A stretch of DNA of 64,000 nucleotides from the IMG/VR virus record IMGVR_UViG_2645727545_000002, positions 64,001 to 128,000 of that record. One strand, given 5' to 3'. Position numbers and translations under genes: made by a program. The notes below the pieces were generated by a model. It did not search any database, had not been told where the DNA came from, and was given only the letters and a program-made list of their open reading frames with translations. This DNA comes from a virus. Taxonomy: Duplodnaviria > Caudoviricetes. The stretch's first letter is position 1; every line of letters starts with the position of its first letter. Shown here in pieces: positions 31,864-63,958 of this stretch.

Positions 31864-32980
31864 ATTTTAACTTGTAAATTAGGAAACGAAATCATCAATT
31901 GTTATGATGGAACACATGATAAGGAGCAGCTAAAAAAGTGGGCAGAAAAGAAAATTCTACTTTGTACTGTTTGCAATAAACCATACGAATACTGTCATGG
32001 TAAAATCAAAACACCATATTTTAGACATATGGAAAAGATGTCGTGTGATTATCAATATAATGAACCTGAAACCGAAGAGCATTTAAAAGGAAAACGAGAT
32101 CTATTTGAATGGATTAAAAAACAGCCAAAACGTTAAAAATGCAGTTTTGGAAGGTTGGATACCAGAAACAAAACAACGACCAGACATTATGTTTGAATAT
32201 AAAAATAAGCAATATGTAATTGAATATCAATGTTCTCCTATTGCAACAGAATATACAGAAAGACACGAATTATATAAAGCTGTAGGTATACATGACATAT
32301 GGATTTGTGGAACACAGAAATATCTACAACAAAATATGAGAAAGAAATTTTTAGAAAATGTAGCATATGCTTTTTATTCATCTGAAAATCAGATTGTTTT
32401 CCCAATAGAACATAATCATTTATTTGGGAGAACTTGTTTGATAAAAAATGAATTGAGAGTAAATCATAATTATTTTTATGGTCTTTCGCTGGGCGAATTT
32501 TCATTTGATTATGAAATATTTAATAAAAAGTTTGGAAAACCTAATGAAGTTATTAAAAAAATGGAATATAGAAAAAATATAAGAAAAAATGCTTCATTTA
32601 AAAAAGAACAAGATTATTATTTATTTTTACAAAACAAAAAACTAAACCGGGATTTAGATACTAAGTTATATCAATTATCTAATAACAACTGGAAGTTCTA
32701 TATAATGACAAATTATAGTAAGTATAAATCTTTTGAATATATACTTGCAGAACCAGTGGTGTCGTATAACATACATAAATATGATTTCCATACAAAATTC
32801 AGAAATAAGAAATACAAGAAAATTATGATTAGTAAAATGGATTATAGTGAATACAAAAGATGTTGTCGTGATATTGAATATTTGAAGCGAATATTATATG
32901 AAATGATGATAGAAAACAAAAGACAGTTAATGAAATATACAAGTGAAAATATTAGATTTTTGGAGGTATTGGATAATTGA
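31864..32980 (+). CDS. Competence CoiA-like nuclease (frameshifted; probable ATT start)
   Basis: LLCTVC...PYFRH, PETEEHLKGK, QRPDI...IEYQCSP. Confidence 0.8.
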
Positions 32981-35900
32981 GTAAACATTTAACATCACAA
33001 AGATACGTTTTTAAAATACATTCTTCTCGTCTTAGAAGAGCAAAATGGGATTTGCAGCTATCAATAAAACAAGCACGAGAAAACAAGGAATTAATCGCAT
33101 TAAGCGAAAGTCAAATGATGAGATTTATAGATGAATTGAATGGAATAACAAATCCTGAATTACATATTTCAGATATAAAATCTAAAATTAAAAATTTGAA
33201 ATATGAAAAGAATTTATCTGTATCAAGACCAAAAATTAAAAAACTGTATGAAGAATTAGATACTTATCAATTTAAAAAAGATTATGTATGTGTTGTTATA
33301 GATAATAATAAAGACTATTACAAAATGTACAAACACGGTTTTAAAAATAAATAAAATTACATACAGACGATTACTTGGAACTACTGGTGGAGTTAAAAAT
33401 AATACAATTGTTTTTGTAAACGAAAAATTATTACCAGAATTAAAAAGAAGAATTGACAATGGAAGAGATAAAACTAAAGAGTTTCTCCGGCAAAATTAGA
33501 AGCATATAACGCATTAGTCTGCAGTTCTTCTACTCCTGTTTCATATCCAAATGGTGTTGTTGTTGTACATGACTGCATTACACACTTCAAATCTGACATT
33601 ATCGAGTTAGACGATACAAATCTTGAAGAACCAAGCATGAAATATATTAAAAATAAAGAAATGGAATTAAATGACAGTGATGGGTATGGATTAGCAATGC
33701 CGCAGCTCATGAAAAGATGGGGAGAAGAAATTGGAGAAGATTTTTTGTTGCCTGGATGCGTGATAAGAAATTCATTTTGTAAAGGGGCAGTTTTTCCTAT
33801 CGATTTTCAAAAATTCGCCAGTGATAATAATATAGATTCGATAACTGATGTTTGGGGGGATACTCATAATATAAATGATATAGAGCTAATACTGACAGAA
33901 TCAATGTTAAAATTGTGGGACTCGTATTCATCCATTGAAGATTATTTAGAAAACTGCGAAAAAAATCATTATAGCTTTTCTATTACAAAGAATTCCGAAA
34001 AAGAATTAGAAAATATTAGAACAATGAACTATCAGTTTCTCCAAAGTTATGATTTTAATGAGGAAGAAATCGATGAGCTTATTGAACCCACTGTTTCAGA
34101 AATATGTGATATTTTGTCAGATGATTATAGGAAAACTATTTTATATACAAAAGGTATTGGATTAAATAGTGATACCGTTCAGAATTTAGACAATTCGTTT
34201 TCAACAGCATTGATGATTGAGCCGGAAATGAAAAATGATCCATTTATCAAATCACAAATTTATTCTATGATTAGAAAACGAATTGATGATGCAAAAGTTG
34301 GCGTTTTAAATGTCCCGGCTAATTACTCTTTGGTTTCCGGAGACCCTTACTCATTATGTCAATCTATGTTTGGATTGAAGGTCACAGGATTGTTAAAGTC
34401 CGGAGAAATTTATTCGAAATACTGGATTGATAAAGGGGTAGACCAGATTGTAAGTTTTAGAGCGCCAATGACCTCTCATAATAATATTAGAAAACTAAAT
34501 GTGGTTCATAACGAAAAGATGGACGAGTTCTATAAATATATGACAACGCCAACAATATTCAATAGTTGGGATACATGTGCAGATGCTATGAACGGCTTCG
34601 ATAAGGATGGCGACTGTGTAATCAATACTTCTCTCCCGCTGCTTGTTAAAAAAACACAAGAATTACCAGCGGTGGTATGTGTGCAGCGGAAAGCACCAAA
34701 ATGTATTCCCACAGAAGACGATATCATGAAGTCTAACATCAATAGTTTTGGAAATGCAGTTGGTGCCGTTACAAATAAAATTACATCCATGTTTGAAGTT
34801 CAAGCAAATTTCCCAAAAGATAGTCGTGAATATAGAATTCTAGATTATCGTATTAAATGTGGACAATTATACCAGCAGAACTCGATCGATTAACTTTAGT
34901 CGCTTTACACAGCGATGTGTATCGAATAACAAGGTGAACTTATAAATATAAGGTGTACATTACACGTATAGGAATTACAGGAAATGGTAATTAGGTAATG
35001 TGCTAACTGGAGAAGTCTAAGTATATAACAATAAAATATGCGTAAAAAATTTAAAAGAAAGAATGTGATTATATAAGTTTATATAACAATTATGGAATTT
35101 ATGGAATAAGAAATAAAATCAATAACAAGATTTATGTTGGAAAAACAGAAATGAATTTTGGCGACAGAAAAGATTGTCATTTTGCAAGTCTTCGTGGTGG
35201 ATATCATATAAATCCGCATTTGCAAAAATCATTCAATAAATACGGAGAAGATAATTTTGAATTTATTGTATTGTATCAATGTAATAACAATGAAGATAGT
35301 AATATGGTCAATGAATTAGAGAAAAAATATATCAAGTTATATAAGGACAAAGAACTTGCTTATAATATTGGAGATGGTGGTGACGGTGGACATAATTTAG
35401 GAAAGCATTTGTCAGAAGAAACCAAAAGAAAAATTGGAGACAAAAATAGAATCAACATGACTGGTCGTAAAGCCACTATTGAAACTAAGAAAAAAATGTC
35501 AGAAGCTCAAAAAAACGTTTTGATAGAATGTCTGATGAAGAACTCAAGGAATATGGGAAACGAATTTCTCAATATGCTTCAGGATATAAATGGTCAGAAG
35601 AGTCAAAAGAAAAATTTTCAAAAATTCAGCAATCTAAACCTAACGGCGCAAAATATGATGTGGAAACAGTAAAAAAGATAAGACATTTGCACGAAGACAA
35701 GAATTTGACTTATACAGAAATCGCAAAATTATTAAATATGCACAGACATACTGTGTATTTAATCGCTACATATAGAAGATGGAAATACGCATAACCCATC
35801 ACACTGTTATATATATGATGATCCAGTGCCAAGCTAAAGCAGCAATGCTTTAGAAGGTCAAACGAGCAAGACATACAATCTCTACGAGATTATGAAGTCT

Positions 35901-36870
35901 GTATGATTAAGGTGGAACTCCTTGATCAGAAGTGCCTTGCCCTCATTTTAAATGAGGTGATGATGTGCTCTACTCCCTAATAAATATCGGGAAACCGAGG
36001 GTATTAAGGAAAACTAAAGGGATTGAGTCAAAACCTATGCCGAGCGAGTGGTATAATTGGATTGCAAATAAAATTTCAAACGGAAAGAGTTCTTCTGAGA
36101 AGAAGAAATACTGGATGAATAGAAAACTTGTTGCGGATAAAAAACCGTATTTTATGCAATACATTTATCCTGCAGAAAAAACAAAGATGTTAGAGTATAT
36201 TAAGCGTAATAATGAAAAATGTATTATGAAGTTTAGAATCACACTTGATGAGCTTTTAGAAAAAGAAACTTTGACACTTGATGAGGAGAAGTTTATACAA
36301 TGTTATTACAAAAGAATGCCTTTAGGAATGTCTCCTTGTACTATTAACAAAATATGTTGGGCTATTGAAAACAAATTTTCTGATTTAAAATACGTCAATG
36401 ATTCTGATTTTGACTACTCTATTATGAAATGCAATGTTGTCTATTCTAAGCAGTTGTTTAATAAAATTAAAAAGATTTATGAAAGTTATAAAAAAGAACT
36501 TTCAAACTATATGCAGTTTGCAAAATCTGAAAGAATAAAATCAGACGAAAGACAGATTCAAAAATATACATTAAAAGAAGATTTTAAACGGCGGTGCTTA
36601 GAACAGTGCCCCAATGAAGAATATTTATGCGATATTGTTTTAGATCTATGTTATTCAAAAAGTAAATCTAGCAAGCAATTTGCATGGGATATATGTGGAG
36701 ATATGATTATCTCAAATCTTCTTAAAAGGAATAATTACAAGGTTACTTATCCAACGCAAGACATAAATGGCGATATTGATTTTGCAGGGAAAAAGTTTTC
36801 ACTAGAAACAACAGAAATTAAATTTGATATGGGTATTAAAGACGAGGAGGACGATGAATGGTTGTACTAA
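32977..36870 (+). CDS. yonO: YonO-like single-subunit RNA polymerase; exons ~32977-34890 and 36010-36870
   Basis: SDGYG, FCKGAV, FRAP and catalytic DKDGD motifs; splicing joins QQNSID|KTKGI; SPbeta-like synteny with YonK/YonJ/HU homologues. Confidence 0.85.
34891..36009 (+). ncRNA. Group I intron in the RNA polymerase gene
   Basis: P1 CGAT|TA pairs with TAGTCG giving U.G at 34890; guide CTTTAGT pairs with 3' exon ACTAAAG (P10); P7 GAGCA/TGCTC; terminal G36009. Confidence 0.88.
35073..35794 (+). CDS. Intron-encoded GIY-YIG homing endonuclease with NUMOD3 repeats (frameshifted)
   Basis: YGIYGIRNKINNKIYVGKT upstream of the first ATG; HLSEETKRKI repeats. Confidence 0.85.
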
Positions 36871-37618
36871 ATGAGACAAAAGAAGCAGAAAGACTTATTT
36901 CTGAAGGGGAGGTTGGCAACAAGCCAACTTCTACCCTATTTCTATTATCTAGGTATTATAGACAAAAAGTAAATTTAAATAAACAAGACACTATTTGTAA
37001 ATTAAATGATTTTATGGGCAAACATTATAAAAATTATAATGCTGCTTTATGGGAAGATGTTATTGAAAATACTGTAAATAAAGCACACAAATATCCATTG
37101 AGAGAAATAGAATGTATTGAAATATTTCAATCTGAATTAGACACAATTTCAAGAGTTAACACTACGAAATATAGAAAGCTTTTATTTGTAATGTTATGTT
37201 TCGCGAATTATACAACACATTATCTGAAACAAATAATGGATGGATTAATACGGATATAAAAGAAATATATAAAATTTCTAGAGTACATGTAAAACATAGG
37301 AATGATAAATTTTTATATTTGAACGATTTGGAACAATTGGGACTAATCTCTTTTTCAAATAAAAATGACAACCTGAATCTAAAAGTAAATTTTGTTAATA
37401 AAACTGGTGAAACTGCTTTAAAAATAACCGATTTTCGTGAATTAGGATATGAGTATTTAAATTTTGTTGGGGAAGGAAAATTTGAAAGGTGTAAACGATG
37501 CGGGAAATTATTCAAAAAGAATAGCAACAATATGAACTATTGTAATGACTGTCAAAAAGAAATTACAAAAGAAAAAACAAGAATTAGAGTGAAAAAGTAT
37601 AGAGAAAACAACATGTAA
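36858..37618 (+). CDS. Hypothetical protein downstream of the RNA polymerase, C-terminal zinc ribbon (frameshifted)
   Basis: GAGGAGG SD; CKRCG...YCNDC. Confidence 0.7.
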
Positions 37619-37698
37619 CGATTCAGAAAACCCTTGAAACCCTTGTAAACACTGGGTTTCTGGGCATCATGCCCGTTTTTCTTTATATGTAGATAATA

Positions 37699-38303
37699 TA
37701 AGCACTTGCTTATAAATACAAATAACTCAGTGCAGATTGGCTTGTCACCATGCTGAGAATATATGAATAGTGAGTTACGGTATAATGCGATAGTTTTATA
37801 CTGCAGCTTCTGGAATGATGTGAATCATAAACAGAAAGACGGAAACTGTCAAAACTAAATATATGTACAATAATATATTGCCGTAAAACGCAATTGCCAG
37901 ATCGCTGACATAATAGACGACTCCAGTGGAGTAATAATCGTGATGCCTGTATCGGTGGAATGTTACAGAGAGATAAGTAGCGAAAATCCAAATAAGTCAG
38001 TTGCGTCGTTGATCGGAAGAAATTCCAGTATAAGATCTGTCGAATGTACGAGTAGCCCAAAGTGACGTGAGATTAATACATAAAGAACAAAAAAATTAAA
38101 TCTTATTATGAATTTTCTTAATACGCTGAATGACATGGGTGAAAGTTTCTCGTAATCAGTCGAGGCTACAATTGCTGTTTATCAGATGTAAAGGAAGTCT
38201 AAGGGTAGCTCCTTATTCTCAGCCTTTACAAGTAGTGGCGGAATATTATGACGATATATTTGAGTAGGAAGAAGTTCCATTTGTATTTATAATCAAGTGC
38301 TTA
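37699..38303 (+). ncRNA. Large structured RNA, probably ROOL
   Basis: 25-bp terminal helix (37699-37723 with 38279-38303, one mismatch) enclosing ~605 nt with no credible ORF; internal GCTGAATG..GTGAAAG; adjacent to tRNAs. Confidence 0.7.
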
Positions 38304-38394
38304 TGCGCGCACTTGACGATTTCTAATCTCCTTTTCAGTTAGTAATAGCATTGCTGTTCTGGTAGTGCTGTTGCTAACATCTTAGGAGTATTTT

Positions 38395-38466
38395 AGCCCC
38401 ATCGCCAAGCGGTAAGGCACAGGACTTTGACTCCTGCATTCAGTAGTTCGAATCTACTTGGGGCTG
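38395..38466 (+). tRNA. tRNA-Gln(UUG)
   Basis: AGCCCCA/TGGGGCT acceptor stem, CTTTGAC anticodon loop, TTCGAAT T-loop. Confidence 0.9.
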
Positions 38467-38650
38467 CTATCATCCGAAGTGTTGCGCTGACCGTCAATCA
38501 GTGGCGCATAAAAACCTATCCCAGTATAAATCCAGGTGACACTGGCTTATATGAAGATACGCTCTAGGTTTACTACGTTTTATATAACTATTCACATAAC
38601 AATTATTTTGTCGTCCTTGTGGATGGGTGTTTTGGACGAGCAAACAATAA

Positions 38651-38741
38651 GCTGCATTAATCCTCTGTGGTAAGGGGTCGATCTTGAAAAATCGATAGTA
38701 GCCGCTTATGCGGTGTCTAAGTTCAAATCTTAGGTGCAGCG
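38651..38741 (+). tRNA. tRNA-Ser(UGA)-like, long variable arm, 8-nt anticodon loop as read
   Basis: GCTGCAT/GTGCAGC acceptor; TCGAT-CTTGAAAA-ATCGA; TTCAAAT T-loop. Confidence 0.7.
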
Positions 38742-38746
38742 TTATA

Positions 38747-38821
38747 TGCAGGCGAGTGGAACGGATTACTACGTCAGACCCATAATCTGAAAATACTGGG
38801 TTCGACTCCCAGGCTCTGCAA
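38747..38821 (+). tRNA. tRNA with CAU anticodon (Met/fMet-like, divergent)
   Basis: TCAGA-CCCATAA-TCTGA; CTGGG-TTCGACT-CCCAG; bulged acceptor stem. Confidence 0.7.
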
Positions 38822-39111
38822 TACTCTCCCACTGTGGAGAAATATACAACGAAAGGAATGTTTTATCATAGTTCTTATTACAGACAAAGAATGTAAATTT
38901 TGTTAAGCAAAGGATGGAAATGGAGAGATCATATTCATCGCACTGTATCCGGAGCAAACAAAAATATGCAACAGAAAATTATCGATTGATGCAAGATTTA
39001 GAAAATTTTAGATCACAGTCGATTAAAGAAACAACACATACAAAGAAACATACAAACAGAAAACGTAAAAATAACTAGAATTAAAACTAGAAGGAAAGGT
39101 GGTTTTTTACA

Positions 39112-40545
39112 ATCGCCAAGAAGAAAAAAGATTTTATTAAAATTTCTTTTATAGACTCCCCATCATCAGAAGATGTAACAGGAAGTCTCATTTACATTTC
39201 TACACCAAATCATAAATTCCTCGTTGATGCCGGGCTTTATCAAACAAATGATAGATATGAGGATTTCTTGGTAAACAATCGCAAATATAAAGAATTCAAA
39301 CCAAAAGAATTGGATTATGTATTTATCACTCATAATCATGGAGATCATTGTTTGTTGCTTCCTAAATTGTTTAAAGATGGATGCAAAGCAAATGTAATTA
39401 TTGCAGATGGCTCTGCAGAAGTTTTAAAAGATATGGCTGAAGATTGTGCAGAAATAAACGAACGCGATGTAATAATTATCAATAATCAGCACGATAAGCA
39501 TTATGAATCTTTATATGATCTAACGATGTTCATAATATGATAAACCATACTGTAGAATTCCCAATGGAAGAAAAATTAAAATTGATGATGAATTATCATT
39601 TGAATTAATTCCAAGTGGTCATTTACTTGGAAGCTGTCAAGTGATGTTATATCTTACAGTTAACAATGTAACTAAAACAGTTTTAATAACTGGAGATATA
39701 GGAAATAAAATTGTTGGAAATCGATTTGTTGGAGAATACAAGCAAGTCAAAAATGCTGATTATGTTATTGCAGAATCTACTTATGGAGATAAACCAGATA
39801 TTAAAACTGGTCGAAAAGAAAAGAAAAAACGATTTAGAAAAGTTTAAATCAATTATTGATACACAGATTCATGATTTAAAAGGTCGTGTGATTATACCAA
39901 GTTTTGCACAGTCTCGCAGTGCTCAACTTGTGCTTATGGTTTATCAATTATATAAAGATAGTGATTGGAAACCGAAAGTGTACATCGATTCACCATTAGC
40001 AATTAAATTGTTTAAGGATTATGAAAACTGTCTGGATGGAAAAGATAAAGAAGACTTCGATGAAATGCTGCATAGTGGAATGTTTCATTTTGTAAAAGAA
40101 CCTGTGGATAGCAAAACACTTGTAGCAAGCAATGAACCATGTCTGATAATCTCAACGAGTGGTATGTGTCAAGTCGGTCGCATTCGCCACCATTTAAAAA
40201 AATGTGTAATTGATCCAAATGCAACTGTTCTGTTTGTAGGATTTAGTACAGATGGAAGTTTAGCTTCTTTACTTAAAGATAATAAACGAAAAACAATTAC
40301 AATTGATCAAAAAGAATATCCTTGTAGATGTGCATCGTATTCATTGAAATCTATGAGCGGACATGCTCCGTTCAATCAACTTGTTGAGAATTATACAGAA
40401 ATAAATAGTCAGAAAATAATTCTACATCACGGTTCAAAAAAGGCAAAAGAAATTTTAAAACAAAACTTTAGAAAAAGAATATGAAAAGAAATGTAAATCA
40501 ACTCGTGTTGTAATTGCAAATTCGAGTCTAAAAATTACGATATAA
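39112..40545 (+). CDS. Metallo-beta-lactamase/beta-CASP ribonuclease (several frameshifts; probable ATC start)
   Basis: VTGS, LVDAG, THNHGDH, GHLLGS, TGDIG, ESTYG, SGM..GRI and MSGHA motifs. Confidence 0.85.
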
Positions 40546-40562
40546 GTATAAATCAGGAAAAT

Positions 40563-40763
40563 ATGAACGATAATAGAAGATTTGATAAAGAATACTCAAC
40601 TCAATATACTCCAGAAATGAAGTATCTTCTATCAAAGGGGATTAAGTATTCTTTTGTAAAAGACGTTTATGGAGTAACAACATATAAGTATAAAAAGACA
40701 TCAGAGTTATTTAAAGCACTGATGTCTTTTATATGGAGAATAAGTAGACATGCGAAAGGATAG
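40563..40763 (+). CDS. Small DUF5659-like protein (paralogue of 63785-63958)
   Basis: FDKEY.T....E.KYL...GIKY.FVK...GVT.YKYKKT.EL shared with the last ORF in the window. Confidence 0.65.
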   Translation: MNDNRRFDKEYSTQYTPEMKYLLSKGIKYSFVKDVYGVTTYKYKKTSELFKALMSFIWRISRHAKG

Positions 40764-40780
40764 ACAATAGGTGATAATAA

Positions 40781-41901
40781 ATGATATATAAAGAAATTGT
40801 AAATGTAAAGATATGTCATCAGAATTATAAACATTATGAAAACAAGGGGTATTTTGTAAATAGGATATACGACATTAAAAATAGACCAAGTGTTCCAGAA
40901 CAATATATAGATGTGAATTGGGAAGATATCCCACATAGTAGTAAAGAAAAGATATTATTAAAATGTGATATTTGTGGAAAGATATTTGAAAGAAAAATTT
41001 TAGATTATTATCATTCGCATAAAAGCAATGATATAGATACTTGTTGTAAAAAATGCCAATATATAAAATCTAATAAAACAAAAATAGAAAAATATGGGAC
41101 TACTAATCCGGCTGAAATTGCAAAACAAATAAATGGAACATAGGTCGTTCATTAAAATATGGAAGACAAGATATTGAAGACATGTGTAAAAATAAGGATT
41201 ATAAAATATTTAAAAAAAATAATGATGTGCGATATACCGTAAAATCAAAAATTAAATTATTTTGCACAATACATAACTGCGAGTTCGAAACTTCTGTCGA
41301 ATGTTTAATGAATAAAAATAGAACGAATTGCCCTATGTGCAATGGTGAAAAAATTTCTAAAAGACAGTCTAAATCTACGATTGAAGAAGTAAAGAAAATA
41401 TGTGACGAAAAAGGTTATACTCTATTAACTGATCATATTAGTAATTGCGATGATAGAATAGAATATATTTGTAACAAACATAAAGATTATGGAGCTCAAA
41501 AAACTTCTTTATATGGATTAAGGAAGTACTCCAATAATTGCAGAATGTGTAGAATTCCTAAAAATGAAAACCATTGGCATTGGAATGGAGGAATTTCTTC
41601 TGATCGAGACAGAATAAAAAATACTCCTCAGTATAAAAAATGGATTAAAGATGTGTTTGAAAGAGATGATTATACTTGTCAATGCTGTGGAAAAAAGGGG
41701 ACTTATCTTGAAGCGCACCATTTGTATAATTTTTCAGAGTATCCAGAATTAAGAATGGACGTAGACAATGGCATAACATTATGTCATGAATGTCATTCGA
41801 TATCTGTCCCAACAAGCTTTCATGGTGTATATACACAATTTCATAATACTCCAGAACAACTATTTGAATACATAGAAAATTATAAAAATGAAAAAATGTA
41901 G
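40781..41901 (+). CDS. HNH endonuclease with zinc ribbons (frameshifted)
   Basis: VFERDDYTCQCCG...LEAHH...NGITLCHECH. Confidence 0.85.
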
Positions 41902-41978
41902 TTAAAATAAATAGAAAATAAAATTGTAATTTTTAGGAAGATGAATATTATAGATTAGACTTATTGCAGGTAACGCAT

Positions 41979-42239
41979 ATGAAAAAAAATAAAACATTAT
42001 TATCATATATATTAGGTGCATGTACAATCGTAATATTTCTTCCAATTGTAGAAGAAATAGTTAATGTAATTCTGTCTTGGATTGAATATCTGAAAATTCT
42101 TCCGGGAAAACTTGTTATAAAAGGCAATGCAGAATTACAAGAGTTGCAGTCGGATTTTGAGGTTGAATCGACAGATACATGCGCTATCGGGTTTCATTAT
42201 GAACCAGAAACTGAAGAATATTATGACGAGGAAGAGTAG
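41979..42239 (+). CDS. Small membrane protein
   Basis: Hydrophobic N-terminus and acidic tail. Confidence 0.6.
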   Translation: MKKNKTLLSYILGACTIVIFLPIVEEIVNVILSWIEYLKILPGKLVIKGNAELQELQSDFEVESTDTCAIGFHYEPETEEYYDEEE

Positions 42240-42357
42240 TCTAATACTGCTCTTCTATTTTTATTGAAACAGAACCCAACACACCTCTCAACGATGCGAA
42301 CCACGTTGAGTAGTTCACATTTAATCGAAAATATAGATAATGAAAGGATTAATTGAT

Positions 42358-42573
42358 ATGGCAAATTTTGTATTTAAAGTAACAACAACAAAAAAATTGA
42401 AAGCTACAGGAATGCTTGACTTAGAAAATATGACAATTGAAATTAACGGCGAGGATAAGAAACTTTCTACACTTCTTAGTGAGTATGATGGATGTGAAGT
42501 TAATCTTACTGTTGATGTTAAATCTGAAGAAGATTTAGATATGCCGGAAGAAGATTCCGAAGACGATATGTAA
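42358..42573 (+). CDS. YonK-like protein
   Basis: ATGMLDLENMTIE...LLSEYDG.EV.LTV pattern; position upstream of the YonJ-like gene. Confidence 0.55.
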   Translation: MANFVFKVTTTKKLKATGMLDLENMTIEINGEDKKLSTLLSEYDGCEVNLTVDVKSEEDLDMPEEDSEDDM

Positions 42574-42587
42574 GGTGGTGTGTCAAA

Positions 42588-43821
42588 CTGTATAATTTTG
42601 AAAAAGAATTAGAAAAATACGGATTAACAACTGAATCTTATGAAGCTGCATGTAGAGATATTGAAAATAAAATTGAACAGCACAAATGATATGGACTGGG
42701 GTGAAATCAAAGATAAATATAATATTCAATGTGCGGTTGATACAATCAGAAAGTCATCTTCTACTATTTTCGGTGGACAATTCAGAGAAGAATATTTAAA
42801 GAGTAAAATCTATACTGATGTAGATGAATTTTCTAAATTAAGAGAATTAGATAAGAAATTAGAAGAATTACGCAAAGAGCGGATAAAAATTCAAACAGCT
42901 AATATTGAAAGAAATAGACTTGACAGAAGTGAGTCGCGTCAGGAATTGTATTACGAATATATTGGAAGTGTTATTGATACTCTTCCATTACCGGAATTTA
43001 GACCGATTTTATACGATGAAATACATACTATAAATTATTTGGTCGGGATTGCAGATGTGCATTATGGAGCTTGTTTTAAAAGTGTAAATAATGAATATTC
43101 TCCGGCAATCGCTAAGAAAAGATTTGAATATTTGACTCATAGATTGATTGATTTTATTCAAGATAAAAAGATTGGAAAGCTAACAATTGTATCGCTGGGA
43201 GATCTTTTACAAGGCGTTTTACGTTTGAGTGATTTAAAAATTAATGATACGTCTATCATGAAAGCAACGGTTGAAGTGTGTAGATTAATTGCAATTATGT
43301 TGAATGAACTTTCGGCATATGTGGAAATCACTTACTACCACACACCATCGGCAAATCATACTCAAATTAGAGTTCTTAACGCTAAACCAAGTGAATTAGC
43401 AGATGAAGATTTAGAATATTTGATGGGTAATTATATTCATGATTTATGTGCAAACAATAAAAGAATTCATGTACATCTTGCGAAAAATGGCGAAGATTTT
43501 GTTGATATATATATGCCAGGAAATGACATTCTTGCAATGCATGGTCATCAAATTAAGAATGTGGAAACCGCCATTAAAGACAAAAGTGTTCTACACCAAA
43601 AATTTTATGACACACTCATTGTTGGACATTTACATAATGGAAAAGTAATCCCATCACATGAGGGAATCTTTGGAGATGCAGAAATATTAATTAGTCCTTC
43701 ATTTGTTGGAAGTGACCCGTACAGTGATTCTTTAAACAAAGGGAGCAAAGCTAGTGTGCAGATATGGGGATTTGATAAAGTATATGGTCATACTGAGACA
43801 TATAAGATTATTTTGAATTAG
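42588..43821 (+). CDS. Calcineurin-like metallophosphoesterase (YonJ-like; probable CTG start)
   Basis: ADVHYG, LGDL, ANH, MHGH and VGHLH motifs. Confidence 0.85.
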
Positions 43822-43832
43822 AGGTTAAATAC

Positions 43833-44006
43833 ATGAAAGTTGAATTATATTGTTGCTACTCTCTTCCACTTAGAGATTATCTATATAAAATGGGATGAGA
43901 TATAAATTAGCGGCATTAAATCCAAATAGCAAAAAATTATTTTGGGTTTATATAAAAAATAAAAAATTAAATGAGTTATTGGATAAGTGGTCTGCGAATA
44001 AGTAGA
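43833..44006 (+). CDS. Small DUF5659-like protein (frameshifted; MKVELYCCYSLPLRDYL...)
   Basis: GAGG SD with ATG; ends LFWVY...LDKWSANK. Confidence 0.5.
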
Positions 44007-44054
44007 CCACTTTTTAAATGGAGAATAATTTATGTAGAAATATTGGAGGTGCTT

Positions 44055-45002
44055 ATGGATAAAACATATTATGTTTATTGTCACACAAATAATATCAATG
44101 GTAAAAATATATAGGAATAACAGGATTAGAAAAACCTTTGTATAGATGGCATAAAGATGGTTCTGGATACTCCGGACAAGTATTTGGTAAAGCCATTGAA
44201 AAATATGGGTGGAATAATTTTAAACATGAAATATTATTTGAAGGACTTGCTTATGAAGATGCTTGTAAAAAAGAAAAAGACCTTATAAGAAAATATAAAA
44301 ACCACAGATAGAAAATATGGATATAATATATCTATAGGTGGAGACAATGGTGCTATTGGAGCATTTAATAATAGATTATCGAAAAAAGTTTATTTGTATG
44401 ACATTGAAGGAAATTATATAAGAGAATTTCCTTCAATGATGGAAGCAGAAAGAATTACTGGAATTAATAATTCTGCTATATGTTCCTGCTGTAAAGGCAA
44501 AATTGCATACACAAAAGATTATAGATGGTCTTACGAAAAAGAAGATAAGTTAATTCCTATTGATAAAGAAAACCATTTTTTTAATACAGTAATAAAAGAA
44601 CAATGCAAAGAAATTTTTCAGTATACTTTAGAAGGAAACTATATTCAAAAGTTTAATTCTTTATCCGAGGCATCGTTAAAGACAAATTCTGATTACAGAC
44701 TTGTTTCTGCATGTTGTTTAGGTAAAAGAAATCAAGCAAATGGATACATTTGGGCATATCAATATTATAATTCGTTTGAAAATTTAAAAAACAGGGAAAA
44801 CGATATAATTCCAAAAGGAAAACCAGTAATTCAATATAGTAAAGATGGGATATTTATGAATGAATATAAATCTATTATGGATGCGGTTAGAAAAACAGGA
44901 GTATCAAAAGGAAAAATTTCACGTTGTTGTAACAATAAAGTATCTATTGTTGATAATAAATATAAATTTGTTTTTAAGGATAGTGAATTATGTGCATCTT
45001 AA
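44055..45002 (+). CDS. Free-standing GIY-YIG homing endonuclease with NUMOD1 repeats (frameshifted)
   Basis: YYVYCHTNNING..YIGIT; three QY..EG..I.EF.S..EA repeats. Confidence 0.8.
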
Positions 45003-45344
45003 GTTTAAAAGTTAAATATCTATATCAAACATTGTAGTTACTCAGAATTGAAAAACTAACGAGAGAGTTCAATCCGCGGCTCAGGATAAGCAGATTTACA
45101 GATTACCTATGTGGCAATCTACGCCAGTGCTCACGTACATGTTCCCACTTATTAAAGCGGAATCTGTCGTATGCACTAACATGTACAGGAGTTTCTATAG
45201 AATAAAAACTTGCCATACGTATCACCTGCCTTCCAAAATAAACTGCATCATCTTGGAGAACCGATATCCTAGAATGTGGAGAAATCCACGAAATAAATTA
45301 TAAAAATTTACAAATTAGTTGATAGAAAAGGAGACATTTTAAAA

Positions 45345-45623
45345 ATGACAAGATCAGATTTAATTAAAACAATTGCAGAAAAAGTAGACGGAGTAACACA
45401 GGAAAAAGCAAAAGAGATTGTTGCTGTAACTCTTGATTCAATTGCAGATGCACTTACCGCTGGAGATAAAGTACAGTTCGTCGGATTTGGAAGTTTTGAA
45501 GTAAGAGAAAGAGCTGGAAGAACTGGACGAAATCCACAGGATGGAAGTGAAATTTATATTGAGCCATCTAAAAATGTAAAATTCAAAGCAGGAAAAGAAT
45601 TAAAAGATAAAGTAAATGCTTAA
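45345..45623 (+). CDS. hup: HU DNA-binding protein
   Basis: GFGSFEVRERAGRTGRNPQ...FKAGKELKD. Confidence 0.95.
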   Translation: MTRSDLIKTIAEKVDGVTQEKAKEIVAVTLDSIADALTAGDKVQFVGFGSFEVRERAGRTGRNPQDGSEIYIEPSKNVKFKAGKELKDKVNA

Positions 45624-45641
45624 GATTGGCGGTGTATCTAT

Positions 45642-47298: not shown

Positions 47299-47391
47299 AT
47301 ATATATATGGTTTGTCAGTTTGACAAGTAAAGAGAATTGTAAACTAATCGTTCGTCTCTACCATAAAAATATCCAATAAACATTAAAGGAA

Positions 47392-48440
47392 GTGATTAAA
47401 ATAGCACGAAGTACAGTTTATAATCAGATTACTTCTTCTGAAAAATTAGAACAAGTAAACCCTGAAAATAAAGAATTAGGAGAAGATTGGTTAGAGTATT
47501 TGGAATCTATTGATCGCTCTCCTCAAAGCATTGTTGCGTATAGAAGTGACCTAAATATATTTTGGGTATGGAATTTACAATACAATAAAAATAAATTCTT
47601 TGCTGATTTAACAAAACGTGAAGTTGCAAAATTCCAGAATCATGCATTAAATACATGGGGCTGGAGTCCAAACAGAATCCGTAGAGTTAAATCATGTCTG
47701 TCATCTTTGTCAAATTACATTGAAAATGTTTTAGATGATGAAGAAGAATTTGAAAATTATAGAGGGATTATAAGAAAAATTGAAAACCCAGCTAAAGAAG
47801 TTGTTAGAGAAAAAACTATTTTATCTGATGAACAAGTGGATTTCTTGTTGCAGGAATTAGTGAACAGAAAAGAATTCGAAAAAGCTTGCGCCGTTGCAAT
47901 AGCAGCTTACTCTGGAATGCGAAAAGGTGAGTTGTTACAGATGAAAGTAGAATTCTTTAATGATGACCATTTTGTATATGATTCCATGTGGAAAACTGAT
48001 AAAGTCAGGGCAAAAGGGTTCGGGAAATTAGGACATCAATTAAATAAATTTGTATTATATGGAGCAAAACCTTATATAGATTCATGGTTAGAGTATAGAA
48101 AAGAAAATGGAATTGAATCTGAATGGATGTTTGTATCATCTTATAGAGACGAAAACAATAATAAATGTTATAGGAAAAGAAAAAACTTGAGTGAATGGAC
48201 ATATGAATTTAGCGAAATTTTAAACGAAGATTTCTATTTTCATAGCCTGAGACATTTCACATGCACCAAACTACATCGCTTAAACTTGCCCTCACACGTT
48301 ATTCAAGAATTTTTTGGTTGGCAAAGCGCAGAGATGTTAAAATCTACAATGATCTTACTGCTGAAGACGAATTTAGCAAATATTTTGATAAAGATGGAAT
48401 TAAAGAGGTGACACAGGGTTATTTGTCTGATGTTTAATTC
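47392..48440 (+). CDS. Second tyrosine recombinase (3' frameshift at ~48340; end approximate)
   Basis: SGMRKGEL, FHSLRH and FFGWQSAEML; catalytic Tyr (IYND) in the shifted frame. Confidence 0.85.
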
Positions 48441-49977: not shown

Positions 49978-50020
49978 ATATGTATAAAACAGGACGGCGC
50001 TACTGCCGTCCTATTATTAT

Positions 50021-50090: not shown

Positions 50091-50131
50091 TTTATTGATA
50101 TATAAATTAGTTGAGAAAGAAGGGATAAATT

Positions 50132-51171: not shown

Positions 51172-53958
51172 ATGGCTACATCGAGAAAAATGACAGAACA
51201 AGAAGTTGCAAATGAGAAAGCAGAAAGGTTAATGAACGGTGTTGCTTATTGGGCAGCTTTTTACAGAAAAAACCCACAACGTTTTTGTAAAGATTATTTA
51301 AATATAACTCTCAAATTATTCCAAAAGATATTGCTATATGCAATGATGTGCAATAATTATTTTATGTATATTGCCTCTCGTGGACAGGGTTTGTAAAAAT
51401 ATCACGAGTGGAGGAAATAACAAATGAGTAAATATGTTTACAATAAAGATTATTTCGAAAAAAATTAACACATCAGAAAAAGCATATTGGCTAGGTTTTT
51501 TATATGCAGATGGATGTATTACAAGATTTTATAAGGGAGAAGTATTAAAATCTATGTCTTTAGAAATTACTTTAAAAGACGCAGATTGTGAACATCTTAT
51601 TAAATTTAAAAACGCTTTAGAAAGTAATATTCCTATTCAACATAGAATTATTACCGGGAAATATAAAGCAGATAGAATAGTTGTTAATTGCACAAAAATA
51701 TGTAATGATTTAATCAAATTAGGTTGTACTCCGACTAAAAGTCTAACATTAGAATTTCCTAAAAAAGATATAATACCTCAAGATTTTATAAGAGACTTTA
51801 TTAGAGGTTATTTTGATGGAGATGGTGGTGTATCTTATACTGAAGGTAAATATTATAATAATGCTAGAAAAAAATATTACAAACAGCATCACTATCGATG
51901 CTATTTTTGTGGAAACATACAATTTTTAACTGAATTAAAAAAAATATTGAATTCTAATGGAATTAAAACATCTGATCTAAAAAAAGACAATAGAAGTAAT
52001 GCAATTAATATTTATATATATGGAAGAGAAAATATAGAGAAATTTAAAAATTATATATATACAGAGGGGTGTGTGAACTTATCAAGAAAATTTGATAAGT
52101 TCTTTTTTATTTCCCACAATAGCGATCTTCATATAAATAGATAACGCCATGTTTAGCCCTGTCTAAATTGGGGAAAATCGGTGAAGACTAAATTTATTTA
52201 AAATATAAAATAAATATGTTAATACCGAGATAACTTAATAGATTTCGTAAGGCTATTAAGCATTGTAGAGAGTAGAGATTGAATAAATATAATATCTCCA
52301 AGAGTCCCCAACTACATTATTGTAGAAAATGTACTCCAAGCTGAGTTGGAAATGACCAACTGATGAAAATGAAGGAAACTTCCAGAGCATAGGATAAAAA
52401 ACCTATGGTTAATAACATACTGAAAACATGGCTTACTGCTCTATTCTGCGTCGTTCGTTGCATATTATTCCCAGGAAGCAAGATATGCATTGCTTCTTCA
52501 ACAAGACCACAGGCGAATCAAGTCCTTTTGAAAATAACCGATGATTTTTGTAAAAACTATGGATGGGGTTCAGATAATTTGAATAATGAAATAGGGTACA
52601 AATCAGTTGGTGCGAATAATGCGGTGATTGAATTTAAAAATGGGTCATGGATAAGGGTTGTGACCGCATCTGACAGTGGACGAGGCGCACGTGCAAATAT
52701 TCTAATTGTAGACGAATTTCGTATGGTTGATTTAAATGTTATTAATACTGTTCTTAGAAAATTCTTAACAGCTCCGCGCACCCCAGGATATTTAAATATA
52801 AAAAAATATTCTCATCTAACTGAGCGTAATAAAAGAAATATTTATGTCCAGCGCATGGTATAAATCTCATTGGTCATTTGAAAAAGCGAAAGCATATGTC
52901 GTAAATTTTTTTAGATAATAGTAAAAAATATTTTATTTGCGGACTACCGTATCAAATAGCAATCAAAGAAAATTTATTATCAAAAGAACAGGTTGAAGAT
53001 GAATTTTCTGAGCAAGACTTTGATCAAACATCTTTTGATATGGAGATGGGATGTTTATGGTTTGGTGATACGGACGGTTCGTTTTTTACATTTGATGATT
53101 TATCTAAATGTAGAAAAATAAAAACACCGATGGAGACACATTTTTTCAAAAATAAAAAAATACCAGACTTAGCCCTTAATGAAAAAAGAATTATGTCTGT
53201 AGATATTGCATTAATGGGTTCTAGTAAATCAAAGAATAATGATGCAAGTTCAATTTTAATTAATAGTGCTCTTCCAACAGAAAGCAATGAGTACATTTCA
53301 AATATTGTATTCTTAGAAAATCATGAAGGACTTACAACTGACGAATTAGGAATTATTGTCATGAGATTGTTCTATAGGTATAAATGTACAGATTTGGTAA
53401 TCGATACAAATGGAGCCGGTTTAGGTGTATATGATTTTATTATAAAGAATCAGTTAGATCAAGAAACAGGTGATGTGTATAAAGCTCTTACTTGTTGTAA
53501 TGATAAAGACATGGCAGAAAGATGTAAAGTCGAATCGGCAAATCCATGTATATGGTCGATAAAAGCCAATGCTGCTTTTAATAACGAGATGTGTGTTATG
53601 CTTCGTGCAGGAATACAAAATGGGAAGATCAATCTTCTTGTATCAGAATTTGAAGCAGAGGAAATATTAAGAGACAAGATTAAGTCATATTCAAAGATGC
53701 AATCTTTTGAACAATTAAAATATAAAACACCATATATTCAAACAACATTGCTGATATATGAACTCATAAATTTACAGCATAAGATAGAAGGAACAAACAA
53801 TTAAAATAAAGGAAAAATCTGGTATGAGAAAAGATAGATATAGTTCTTTGGGATATAATTATCACATATTAAGAACATTAGAAAAAAATCTTAACACAGA
53901 TTCTTATTCTTCAGATTTTTCAAATTTTACCCCATGTATTTCTTCTATATCATTTTAG
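51172..53958 (+). CDS. terL: Terminase large subunit; exons 51172-51390 and 52423-~53958 (frameshifts)
   Basis: Spliced Walker A ASRGQG|KTW; [13 protein letters not shown] Walker B; nuclease SVDIA...NDAS and RKDRYSS. Confidence 0.9.
51391..52422 (+). ncRNA. Group I intron in terminase, with the ORF in the P1 loop
   Basis: 5' exon GACAGGGT pairs with GCCCTGTC (~52156-52163); GCCATGTTT pairs with 3' exon AAACATGGC; P7 GAGTA/TACTC; terminal G52422. Confidence 0.88.
51424..52144 (+). CDS. Intron-encoded LAGLIDADG homing endonuclease
   Basis: [11 protein letters not shown] and [10 protein letters not shown]; GGAGG SD; one poly-A frameshift. Confidence 0.9.
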
Positions 53959-55697: not shown

Positions 55698-57281
55698 ATG
55701 GTTAATAAAACAGAAATATTTTCTAGTTCACCTATTTCTATTGCAAGTCATGACAATTATAAAGAGGCAGTTTTTTAATTAGCGTCTTAGACCAGCCAGA
55801 CAGGATAAATCGTATTATACCTGTCGAATCAGGTAAAAAATACCATAAAACAATAATTGGATATCCGCTTGTTGCAAAACTAAAAAAGGCAACTTCTGAT
55901 TTTGGCGGTCATGAAATGAAAATAACAAAAAACAAAAAAAAGGAAAAAAGTTTTCTTTTGATACATTCCCTATTGGAAGCATTACAGATTCGTGGATTGA
56001 AGAACGTGAAGTTGATGGATATAACGGAAAACAAAAATGCATCCTGGCAAAAACCAAATTATGGACAAGTAGACTTCCCGAATATTTTAAAGTGTTCGAT
56101 AAATTATGGATGATGGAGAATTGTCTTCTTCTTGGGAGATGACGGTAACTGACTCAGAAAAAGATGGTGACTACACAATTCTTAAAGTGTTTGAATTTAT
56201 TGGAAATGCATGTTTGGGAAGACTTAAAACTCCATGCGTTCCAGGCGCTGGTGTCATAGAATATGCTGAACTAGAAAAAGATATTGATACAGAATTAGCC
56301 GAGGCTTTAGAAAAGGACTTGGTTAATTTAGATATAGAAGAAAATGATGTAAAGGAGGATATAGGCTTGGCAGAAAATACAAAAAAGAAAATAGAAAACG
56401 AAGAGACAGAAGATACAAAAACTTCTGTCAAAGAGACAGATGATAAAGAAAAAAAGACAGAAGAAACTGCCTCTTGTGGATCAGATTCTACAAAGAAAAA
56501 GACAAAAGTTGCAGAAGAAACAAAAGAGATCTCAGAAGAAAATGCTGAAGTAACAGAAATTGCATCTCTGACTCAATGGGATCTTGAAAGTAAAATCAGG
56601 AAAGCTTGTGACGAAAAAATTGGGAAAAGAGTTTATGGATATGTCGCATTTTGGTTCCCAGAAGATAATACTGTTTGGTATAAAACAGATGATAGCGAAA
56701 ACCAACTTGATTACAAATTATTTACATATGAAGTTTCTGGAGATGAAGTTTTTGTTTCTGAACCAGTAGACGTTAAGCTTACAGTTGCAGTAAAAGATGT
56801 AAATATGGAAATTGCAAGTAAAGATGAAGAGATTGGAAATCTAAAAGCTGAATTAGATATTAAAAATGATGCTGTGATCAACGCAGGTAAAACAATTAAT
56901 ACCTTAAAAACCAAAATTGCTGAATTGGAACCTTTTAAAGAAAAGGTAGAAAAGGCAGAACAAGAAAAAATTGAAGCAGAAATTGCTGAAGAAAAAGATG
57001 CTCTTAGATGCAAGATGTTAAAAGGTAATTTGTTTACAGAATCTGAAATTGCCGAAACAGAAATTGCTGAATTAATTGAATCAAGAAATGTTTCAGAAAT
57101 CAATAATTTAATTGCTGAAAGATATATTGAGCGCATTGATAATGCTGCAGCAGAAGTCGCAGAATTCGAGAAAGCATCAAATGAAGAGTCTGTCGCAACA
57201 GCAAGTTTAGAAACTGATGACATTGCAGATGATTCTGTGTCATTTATGAGCAAATTTTTAAATGGTAGAAAACATAATTAA
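55698..57281 (+). CDS. Prohead protease/scaffold protein (frameshifted)
   Basis: FGGHE, LSSSWEM and FIGNACLG protease-like motifs, then an acidic coiled coil. Confidence 0.7.
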
Positions 57282-57295: not shown

Positions 57296-57781
57296 ATGTT
57301 AAGAGATATTCGTAGAAATGGCGCACAGCCAAAAGACACAATGCACAAAGCAAAAGTTGCAATGGTAACTGGGATGGGTGTAGTAAAAGAAGATAGAAAA
57401 AATACAAAAAGAGGTAAAGTTGCCTACTGCTGAGACAACAACAAATATCTACCTTGTAACAAAAGAAAGAATTCCTACAGGAATTAATGCAGCAAGACAG
57501 GAAATGTCTGATTACGATGATGATTTTACATCAGTAAAATCGGAGAGTTTGTTGGTCTGGAAGTCTATACAGATGGAGAAAAATTTGGAACAGACCAGTT
57601 TAAGGCTGCTGATTTTGGAGACGAAGCGGAACCAGGATTTGCAATGTCTGTTGGAGCAGATGGAAAATGGCAAAAAGCAACAAAAGGAACTTCAAGATAT
57701 GTATTTGCAGGAACAATGAAAGATAACGGTCATAAACTTGTGCTCGTAGAAGTTGTTGCTGATGCAGTATCTGTTGCGTAA
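57296..57781 (+). CDS. Capsid decoration/cement-like protein (frameshifted)
   Basis: AAGGAGG SD; lies between scaffold and capsid genes. Confidence 0.55.
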
Positions 57782-57805
57782 ATAAAATAAGGAGGACTTG
57801 ATAAG

Positions 57806-58798
57806 ATGGCTATTAGAACAGAAATCGCAGAACTCATGGATAAAGATGGTGTTCTGTTTGAAGTTGCTGAAAAGGTAAATTATAAAAGAGAGCTTAACTC
57901 TGAAGAAAAAGAAATTGCTGAAATTTCCGATGCATGGGCAAGAGAAATCGGTAAAACAGGAAAGGATCCTAATTGCGAAATCGCAGAGTTTGTAACTAGA
58001 ACTGTACAGGAAGAAGTGTACAACGCACCGGACGAACTTCTTGATCAGATTTTTGAAAGAGGTTCTGTTGGAGAGTTTGATGATTTAGAAGGAACAAAGG
58101 AGCCAAAAAATACACTTGTAGCACATGAAGCTGCAAAAGGCGGTAATGTAGATCGTTCTTACATTGATATTGAAACTGTAAAACCTACATGGAAAAATCG
58201 TCAGGTTGAAACTGATATCTCATATGTAGATTTAAGAAAAAATGGTTTTAAATCCATCGCAACCTTAACTACATTTATGAAAGAAGCTTGTCAGAATGCG
58301 TTATTTTACGATGCGCTTTCTATGGCGGATAACGCGGTTACAGGAGGAGAAGCTCTTATTGAGGTTACAGGAGCAACACCTACTCTTGAGGCTATGGATA
58401 AATTATCTCTTTATCTGAATGATAGGGGTGATGATAATGTTATTGTTACTTTGAATAAATATGCTCAGGCAATTAGACGTATGCCTAATTTTGCTCAGTA
58501 TTTGTCAGGAGCTATGAAAGACGATTTTAACAGATATGGTTTAGTAAAAACATATGATGGAATTGGCATTGCAGGTATTTCAGGAGCAAAGAAAACTGGA
58601 ACTGGACAGCTGCTCCTGCCAGACAAGAGAATCTATGGTATCGCAGATAAAATCGGAACACTGGATATGAAAGGTGAAATTCACGTATATCAGGATATGA
58701 ATAATCAAGGTGAAAAAGTTCATATTATGTTGAAAGATTTTACATACGGCTTTATGCTCACACATATCGAAAACTTTGCAAAGGTTACTTTGAAATAA
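57806..58798 (+). CDS. Major capsid protein
   Basis: 330 aa; strong AAGGAGG SD; position in the head module. Confidence 0.75.
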   Translation: MAIRTEIAELMDKDGVLFEVAEKVNYKRELNSEEKEIAEISDAWAREIGKTGKDPNCEIAEFVTRTVQEEVYNAPDELLDQIFERGSVGEFDDLEGTKEPKNTLVAHEAAKGGNVDRSYIDIETVKPTWKNRQVETDISYVDLRKNGFKSIATLTTFMKEACQNALFYDALSMADNAVTGGEALIEVTGATPTLEAMDKLSLYLNDRGDDNVIVTLNKYAQAIRRMPNFAQYLSGAMKDDFNRYGLVKTYDGIGIAGISGAKKTGTGQLLLPDKRIYGIADKIGTLDMKGEIHVYQDMNNQGEKVHIMLKDFTYGFMLTHIENFAKVTLK

Positions 58799-58875
58799 GG
58801 TAGTCTTTTTTTTATTTGTTTAAATTTCTATCGGAGGGATTCCTTCGATAGAAATTATGAAGAGGAGGAGATTTT

Positions 58876-59526
58876 ATTAGTAGTAAATTTGGAATCACAA
58901 AACATTTTCAGGTTTTAAATTATAATGAACATTCTGTATGCATTACAATTGCGCCAGGTAAAACATGTGTAATTGAATCCGCAGTAGATGGATCACCAAC
59001 TACTCTTCCGCTTACGTGGGATGAAATTGTATACGCAAATAACAGTAACGTATTTAAAAGCGGATCACTTGAATTCCAAGGAGATGTCGAAAATGATATC
59101 TATAACGAATTAGGAATTGTAAAAGAAAAATGTTTTAAAATATGAAGAAATAAAAGAAATTTTACTTCATCCAGACAAGGATGGACTGAAAAAAATTTTA
59201 AAAATAAAAACGTTATCAGATTTTGATAGAGTTCGTGAAATTTTTCAAAAATTAAAATTTGAAGGTTATTCAATTACTCTTGATGTAAATAATCTTGTAA
59301 AAAAAGAACAGAAGAATTGTTTATGGGGAAATCATCTTCTTCCATTTTTGTTGATGACCCAGAAAATAAATCTTCAGATTCTAAGAAGGTTAAAGACTTG
59401 GAAAAACAGCTTGAGGAAATGAAAGCAATGATGGAATCTTTGCTTAAATCAAATGACACGGTAAAAACTGATTCTGTCGAAAATACTCAGGTTAAAAAAA
59501 CAGGAAGACCGAAAAAGTCTGATTAG
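58876..59526 (+). CDS. Hypothetical head-associated protein (probable ATT start; frameshifted)
   Basis: GAGGAGG SD, then an open frame SSKFGITKHFQVLNYNE...; ends KKTGRPKKSD. Confidence 0.6.
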
Positions 59527-63269: not shown

Positions 63270-63677
63270 ATGGCATATACACCAACGACATGGAGTGATG
63301 GAGATGTTATTACTGCTGAAAAGATGAACAAGCTGGAGCAAGGTGTAAAAAATGAACAGGTTGGCGCACCTGGAGCAGCCGCAGGATTCGGAACACCAAC
63401 TGCAACGGTTGACGCAAATACTGGAGTTCCATCTGTAACTGTAACAGCAAGTGGAGCAAACACAGCAAAGGTATTTAATTTTGCTTTCAAAAATTTAAAA
63501 GGAGCAAAAGGAGATCCTGGTGCGACATACACTCTTCCGGCTGCAAATAAAACAACATTTGGAGGAGTAAAACAGTCTACTTTGGTTCCTGAAGCTGCAG
63601 GAGAAAATGTTACAAAGGCTGAGTTCAAAGCTTTGCTGGACGCTTTGAAAGCAGCTGGTATTATGGCTACATCTTAA
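63270..63677 (+). CDS. Head-fibre/collagen-like structural protein
   Basis: YTPTTWSDGDVITAEKMN, GAKGDPG, YTLPAA..GGVK and LLDALKAAGIM. Confidence 0.7.
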   Translation: MAYTPTTWSDGDVITAEKMNKLEQGVKNEQVGAPGAAAGFGTPTATVDANTGVPSVTVTASGANTAKVFNFAFKNLKGAKGDPGATYTLPAANKTTFGGVKQSTLVPEAAGENVTKAEFKALLDALKAAGIMATS

Positions 63678-63784
63678 AATAACGAGTGATAGATATTTAG
63701 TGTGAAGAAGGGGGGTAAATATCTATTATCGGTATTTGCCCCATTTTTTTACTCTGCTCCGAATAAGTGAGGAGTGAACTCGAA

Positions 63785-63958
63785 ATTAGAAAGTTAGATA
63801 ACGAATACCGCACAGAATCTTCTCACGAAGTGTGTTATTTATCAGAATACGGAATTAAATATACATTCGTAAAAAAAGAAGATGGTGTGACGGTGTGGAA
63901 ATACAAAAAGACAAAAGAACTTGGACTTGCTTTAGCTAAGTTCTGGGAACAGAGATAA
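63785..63958 (+). CDS. Small DUF5659-like protein (paralogue of 40563-40763)
   Basis: LDNEYRT....EVCYL..GIKYTFVK..GVTVWKYKKTKEL. Confidence 0.65.
   Translation: MRKLDNEYRTESSHEVCYLSEYGIKYTFVKKEDGVTVWKYKKTKELGLALAKFWEQR

Follow-up and report, generated by a model that had tools for sequence, protein, structure and literature searches.

The AUU start codon of infC, the gene for initiation factor 3 (IF3), has a proven role in feedback control through IF3, and the AUU of pcnB is another fixed non-canonical start in bacteria. Among phages, the annotation of Bacillus phage SPbeta (NC_001884) assigns ATT to youA and CTG to yomF and yoqK, with a strong Shine-Dalgarno sequence (SD) at 8-9 nt, as in the genes described here. 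A Listeria study places non-canonical starts at less than 0.3% of core genes, with the ATT of infC and the ATC of rnhC fixed, and ranks reporter output as ATG > ATA > ATT (PMC13068326). In a report on phage SPP1, none of 80 open reading frames (ORFs) has a non-canonical start (PMC6316719). Here we analyzed starts of this kind in a stretch of 64,000 nucleotides, called the window throughout, which comprises bases 64001-128000 of the IMG/VR virus record IMGVR_UViG_2645727545_000002 (136,328 bases; ~31% G+C). A first-pass annotation had proposed that genes in its right arm systematically start with ATT, ATA, ATC or CTG, and had read this as a phage-wide translational gate relieved late in infection. 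The first part of that reading stands, as conservation and exchanges with ATG or TTG among relatives indicate real, systematic non-canonical starts, and the late-relieved gating found no support. All in all, these codons are very probably true near-cognate starts behind strong SDs, with low-efficiency initiation that would keep dosage tuned to a low level as a clade-wide habit. The habit is common to a clade of uncultured SPbeta-like phages of 130-175 kb and ~30% G+C.

The SPbeta-like gene content of the right arm of the window (~28000-64000, plus strand) includes a YonK-like gene with a YonJ-like exonuclease behind it, together with an HU homologue, Bro-N, virion genes and several homing endonucleases. 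Read directly from the window, the first codons are ATT at 31864, 58876 and 63785, ATA at 35073 and 47401, ATC at 39112, and CTG at 42588; every one is as the first-pass annotation wrote it, and so are its statements about in-frame canonical codons. The genes concerned are as follows.

31845..32980, plus strand: CoiA-like nuclease gene; SD 31845-31861, ATT 31864; a homopolymer indel divides the copy in the window into 31864-32136 and 32087-32980, with CoiA_N and CoiA_nuc in separate frames
35055..35672, plus strand: GIY-YIG homing endonuclease gene; weak SD 35055-35070, ATA 35073
39090..40484, plus strand: metallo-beta-lactamase / beta-CASP nuclease gene; SD 39090-39105, ATC 39112; three frames in the window (39112-39540, 39536-39847 and 39702-40484)
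42569..43821, plus strand: YonJ-like exonuclease gene behind the YonK-like gene, previously called a phosphoesterase; SD 42569-42585, CTG 42588; frameshift by one extra A near 42667-42669
47384..48411, plus strand: tyrosine recombinase (integrase family) gene; SD 47384-47398, ATA 47401; in-frame GTG at 47392 within the SD
58860..59526, plus strand: virion-module gene of no informative family; SD 58860-58873, ATT 58876; an intact 216-codon frame in relatives, three frames in the window
63765..63958, plus strand: small DUF5659 gene; SD 63765-63778, ATT 63785; in-frame GTG at 63767 inside the SD

The gene at 42588 was assigned to the exonuclease family phrog_284. For the gene at 58876, family searches gave no informative match and the label "head protein" was not confirmed.

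All seven codons lie 2-6 nt after a stretch that pairs with the 3′ end of 16S rRNA at -10.7 to -14.6 kcal/mol, energies computed with a Firmicute anti-SD sequence that may differ from the host's own. Measured from the GGAGG-equivalent core, the distance to the codon is 7-9 nt at the seven sites, the spacing at which canonical starts are most frequent in these genomes. No in-frame ATG, GTG or TTG separates the codon from the upstream stop at 35073, 39112, 42588 or 58876, the four genes for which this had been claimed. At 47401 and 63785 the sole in-frame canonical codon is the GTG within the SD, three and six codons before the start, respectively, a caveat that the first-pass annotation had itself raised and that the sequence bears out. 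At 31864, a usable canonical start is excluded by those relatives, L108 and L112 among them, in which the upstream frame is short.

Two general causes were considered and rejected. Reassignment of a stop codon, which could hide upstream starts, is contradicted by the mixture of stops that precede these genes (TAA 35052, TAG 39088, TGA 42525 and TGA 58858); ORF statistics were uninformative on this point. Translational coupling was rejected as a general cause because a stop codon precedes the start by no more than 25 nt at just two sites, 31864 and 42588.

Dozens of related contigs of 90-180 kb are present in IMG/VR. A close relative was not found among INPHARED phages, PLSDB plasmids or GTDB species genomes, and 81 genomes from the family of a weakly matching Thomasclavelia metagenome-assembled genome yielded only matches of 27-233 bp, most below 70 bp; three of these short matches were checked and none lay in a repeat array. 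Conservation of the start codon in the assemblies of relatives had been suggested as a check, and the weak codons do recur in independent IMG/VR contigs. The strictest case is the beta-CASP gene, in which ATC is the first codon in 27 of 29 loci (67-97% identity), the other two being L043, most likely ATT, and L045, where the N-terminus is replaced. Even a homologue of 39% identity in L005 starts with ATC. The DNA upstream of this gene is unrelated between groups of relatives, yet AAAGGTGG followed by 8-9 nt is kept. An indel in the poly-T tract, which had been offered as a possible explanation of the ATC at 39112, does not account for it, as no gap appears at that place in an independent contig from the same strain, and relatives whose spacers are quite different keep ATC.

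At the GIY-YIG gene, for which there are 36 loci, ATA was found in all of the eight closest, the other 28 being 31-49% identical; these eight show two upstream contexts and lack canonical codons in frame. In the window, residue 12 of the open frame is the first of the GIY-YIG domain, and a start at the first ATG (35151) would cost the protein its GIY motif. ATT opens the 58876 gene in 9/9 relatives, whose upstream DNA is nearly identical and none of which has an in-frame canonical start, and again in a 50% identical homologue in L010 that has no in-frame canonical codon. At 63785, ATT was present in 10/10 relatives, with L054 and L055 lacking an in-frame canonical codon. At these four genes the relatives only keep the weak codon, and no swap to ATG, GTG or TTG was seen.

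Canonical swaps at the identical codon were found at the other three sites. The first codon of the CoiA gene is ATG in 15 of 28 loci, ATT in nine (in four different SD contexts) and ATA in four. Of 11 recombinase loci with an N-terminus, four have ATA, two ATG and five TTG, and the GTG of the SD is out of frame wherever the start is ATG or TTG. The exonuclease has CTG in the window, L001 and L003, ATA in L005, and TTG in L033 and L022. Further swaps at one codon occur in the DNA polymerase (ATT in the related genome G003, ATG in the record analyzed here, G000, and in the related contig G001), in a sigma-factor-like gene (ATT and ATG) and in three other genes. Alignments with PHROG profiles begin at these starts within the first few profile positions. 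The evolution of the sites is, judging from these homologues, one in which the first codon alternates between ATG or TTG and ATA or ATT, with some sites apparently fixed, foremost the ATC of the beta-CASP gene.

The codon usage of the beta-CASP family bears on this fixation. Among 17 distinct sequences, 50 of the 60 invariant-residue columns with degenerate codons vary synonymously, and codon 1 never varies. The ten columns that are synonymously invariant use the preferred A/T-ending codon, with codon 1 as the sole exception: it is always ATC, the rarest Ile codon in these genes (29/200). The invariant ATC fits a codon that would be read as a start and not as Ile, although the 17 sequences are related to each other and the comparison is no formal test.

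We then took a census of such starts in four genomes (G000, G001, G003 and G005), counting only SD duplexes of -10 kcal/mol or better. The canonical class comprised SDs leading to ATG, GTG or TTG and an ORF of at least 50 codons; the class without a canonical start had none at spacing 4-12 and lay at most 25 codons into an open frame of 60 or more codons. A cruder census, based on the best SD at any position in each ORF, had yielded noise and was replaced by this one, which combines duplex energy with spacing. Each genome had 102-124 canonical SD-led starts and 10-14 near-cognate ones. ATA, ATT, ATC or CTG stood at spacing 7-9 in 12/27, 11/32, 14/29 and 10/26 sites, or 47/114 overall, against a codon background of 8.6% (binomial p 8e-7 to 4.5e-5 per genome). 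ATA alone supplied 28 of these 47 starts, though it makes up only ~2% of codons. The excess was highest at spacing 8 (16/29), as for canonical starts, and fell to 0-19% past spacing 9; a bump at spacing 1-3 arises because of the GTGAT tail of the SD itself. SDs before near-cognate starts were slightly stronger (-13.1 vs -12.4 kcal/mol, p 0.002, both groups being cut at -10), a trend repeated in the CoiA contexts and not in the recombinase contexts. Three of the seven window sites were missed by the census, owing to frame errors or short frames.

Weak starts were found on both arms and are not confined to the right arm, as had been supposed. Minus-strand genes outside the window share them, at 45501 (ATA; ATG in G005), 37803 (ATA; a P-type ATPase of 876 residues) and 19921 (ATA; a PD-(D/E)XK exonuclease), given here in coordinates of the whole record G000, which exceed window coordinates by 64000 (123130, for example, is 59130 in the window). 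Run on bases 1-100000 of SPbeta, the same census gave 86 canonical and 8 near-cognate starts, and three of the eight are exactly the annotated starts of youA, yomF and yoqK; bases 1-50000 of phage c-st gave 46 and 1. The density is high here but, by raw count, not clearly above that of SPbeta. Roughly one in ten strong-SD genes of the clade would, by this measure, start with a near-cognate codon. The position of the starts, their conservation and their excess over chance are thus documented at the level of sequence.

A simple mechanism would suffice for such genes. A strong, well-spaced SD would position the 30S subunit at AUA, AUU, AUC or CUG, and the initiator tRNA would then pair imperfectly with the near-cognate codon. 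Gene output would be a small fraction of the rate from an AUG start, and the weak starts may have been selected for low dosage. The affected genes are mostly DNA-acting enzymes (nucleases, a recombinase, homing endonucleases, a polymerase and a primase) together with low-copy virion proteins.

Several points weigh against this account. Initiation at these codons is inferred from sequence, and the habit may be host-wide or specific to the phage. The case at 63785 is the weakest and least certain of the seven, as one relative (L051) has an in-frame ATG two codons upstream. In the census, G000 and G001 share much sequence, so that the counts are not independent, a Firmicute anti-SD was used, and only strong SD sites were counted. 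As five of the eight near-cognate calls in SPbeta do not correspond to annotated starts, some of the counted starts may be spurious, or the clade may be no richer than SPbeta. Finally, the public run X1 (see below) may be the window's own sample, although its contigs were built independently.

The alternative that survives best supposes that the host lineage proofreads starts loosely, as reported for some Mollicutes, so that a change from ATG to ATA or ATT is near neutral under A+T pressure and the density of weak starts is drift. Frequent flips among ATG, ATA and ATT in CoiA and other families, the dominance of ATA, which is one transition from ATG, and genomes of ~31% G+C are all in keeping with it. 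Drift does not predict, however, that the ATC of the beta-CASP gene and the ATA of the GIY-YIG gene stay fixed across diverged relatives, and the somewhat stronger SDs at near-cognate starts suggest compensation. We consider this explanation unlikely.

Another alternative keeps the gate proposed in the first-pass annotation, with IF3 proofreading shutting a regulon of weak-start genes and a phage factor, either the divergent CAU tRNA or a KH protein, opening it late. Near-cognate starts are targets of IF3 discrimination, with infC as the textbook case, and sensitivity to IF3 is expected for such codons. The feature is found in about a tenth of the SD-led genes, and the strictly kept ATC of the beta-CASP gene points to a role for the codon itself. 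The tRNA in question lies within the window.

38748..38820, plus strand: divergent tRNA with a CAU anticodon, elongator-type; Rfam tRNA 33.2 bits; missed by ARAGORN

In initiator tRNAs, positions 1 and 72 are unpaired and the anticodon stem contains three G:C pairs. In this tRNA and in a second one, tRNA(cat) at G000 55818-55889, positions 1 and 72 are paired and the anticodon stem is mixed, without three G:C pairs. By these end and stem features both look like elongator Met or Ile2 tRNAs and not like phage-encoded initiators, which gives the proposed link to the CAU tRNA no support. The link to a KH protein fares no better, as the IF1, IF3, S1, S21 and KH Pfam families had no match in 86 right-arm stop-to-stop frames (E ≤ 0.01) or in 143 further frames, of 165 listed (E ≤ 1e-4), in searches where many proteins match no family. 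Nor do the gene functions point to late relief, since early or middle genes (DNA polymerase, primase, exonucleases, recombinase and sigma factor) are mixed with virion proteins and show no obvious common timing. Moreover, the same genes start with ATG or TTG in relatives, so that membership of such a regulon would be unstable. Taken together, a regulon of this kind appears improbable.

A looser version, which we regard as speculative and doubtful, would make the weak starts a shared sensor, in which about a tenth of the clade's genes, the beta-CASP AUC foremost, would be tied to the state of start-codon proofreading through the level of IF3 or the supply of ribosomes. If so, the outputs of these genes would shift together as infection alters the host translation apparatus.

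It is very improbable that the ATN and CTG codons are ordinary internal codons and that the true start is a GTG inside the SD or an ATG or TTG downstream. The in-frame GTG before 47401 and before 63785 counts in favor of this explanation and against near-cognate starts at these two sites, and the GTG of the SD is also in frame in those beta-CASP relatives that have a one-base shorter spacer. It is out of frame, however, in most beta-CASP relatives, in L054 and L055, and in the recombinases that start with ATG or TTG, and a GTG inside the SD would have a spacing of only 0-1 nt. Four of the genes lack any upstream in-frame canonical codon, and downstream starts would delete the GIY motif of the endonuclease or the first 52 residues of the lactamase fold.

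That the codons are sequencing or assembly artefacts, the true bases being ATG, can be practically dismissed: the assembly is error-prone, but its errors are indels and not substitutions, and the same weak codons recur in dozens of contigs from many different metagenomes.

The indels explain another feature of the record, namely the number of genes split between frames. In the window these are the UvrD, CoiA, beta-CASP and exonuclease genes and the gene at 58876; outside it they are the NrdD, Pol III alpha, TerD and methylase genes. The homopolymer-split stretches are listed below.

Window: 29273-31148, 31693-32980, 39091-40484, 42528-43821 and 58861-59526
Whole record (G000): 4003-6443, 14819-17562, 33978-34585 and 41529-43008

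Alignment of G000 with G001, an IMG/VR contig 93-98% identical to it, gave 119 runs of gaps, most of them one base long and next to a homopolymer. L001, L003 and L005 have an intact exonuclease gene with A3 where the window has A4, and base 42669 is omitted in the contigs of all four public runs. Contigs of run X1 (depth ~42) have 0 substitutions relative to the window over 31583-51400 and contradict further homopolymers; they are letter-for-letter the same across 31864, 35073, 39112, 42588 and 47401, with no gap in the poly-T before 39112. The indels in the gene at 58876 lie at G000 123130 and 123306 (window 59130 and 59306). The frame breaks are homopolymer indel errors of the assembly and are separate from the weak starts. 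Split genes here should not be called pseudogenes, and the record needs homopolymer polishing.

The public runs also differ from the window in gene content. A contig of run X3 lacks the GIY-YIG cassette (35010-35821), and runs X2 and X3 lack a 1.4-kb block (40545-41962) holding an HNH endonuclease gene; these are presence/absence differences, as expected for mobile homing endonucleases. The ORFs that flank the GIY-YIG gene, 33478-34890 and 35965-36867, match consecutive parts of one family (phrog_8308/25339; phrog_35857 3-75 and 72-340), and their counterpart in G001 is a single gene of 870 residues with an ATT start. The endonuclease appears to sit inside that gene or between its halves; no group I intron was found at Rfam gathering thresholds. 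A LAGLIDADG endonuclease gene (51434-52144) directly precedes terminase-large-subunit-like fragments at 52405-52860 and 53040-53801, and the terminase may be interrupted by a mobile element or by assembly errors.

Other features were noted in passing. A full-length ROOL RNA (Rfam RF03087, 321.5 bits, model 1-574/574) lies at 37702-38297 on the plus strand, just upstream of tRNA-Gln (38395-38467) and of the CAU tRNA. Two more plus-strand tRNA genes, tRNA-Glu(TTC) at 48911-48982 and tRNA-Thr(TGT) at 50021-50090, have head-fibre-like and structural genes around them. Because tRNA-Glu overlaps the long frame 48886-49977, that gene more likely begins with the strong-SD ATG at 49060. Outside the window, the left arm (G000 33361-37821, 47881-51990 and 57440-58423) carries four TerD-domain genes beside the P-type cation ATPase, an NAD salvage set (NAD synthase, NAMPT-like and isochorismatase) and a reverse transcriptase. 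An Avd-like gene with a CTG start in a relative suggests a diversity-generating retroelement.

These starts have practical consequences for annotation. Gene finders limited to ATG, GTG and TTG would truncate or miss ~5-10% of the genes in one widespread group of large gut phages, among them those for the DNA polymerase, the P-type ATPase, nucleases and tail proteins. As natural material for measuring the effect of the start codon on dosage in Firmicutes, the clade provides many pairs in which a gene starts with ATG in one member and with ATA or ATT in another, plus one gene with an invariant ATC.

In a literature search of limited coverage, we found no published description of a phage clade with dense non-canonical starts. 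Compared with known systems, the fixed ATC of the beta-CASP gene resembles that of rnhC in Listeria (PMC13068326). It also resembles infC, in that there too a single conserved near-cognate start stands behind an SD and gives low or regulated output, as would be the case for the beta-CASP ATC. The systems differ in that infC is one gene under feedback, whereas many unrelated genes are involved here and no regulator or feedback has been shown. Another parallel is SPbeta, which shares YonK, the YonJ-like exonuclease and the HU homologue with the window. SPbeta has three annotated cases in its first 100 kb, and the window has seven sites in 36 kb backed by relatives; ATA, the commonest near-cognate start here, is absent from those three. 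Starts of this kind are already known, in SPbeta too, and it is not the mechanism, which is ordinary, but the density that is unusual.

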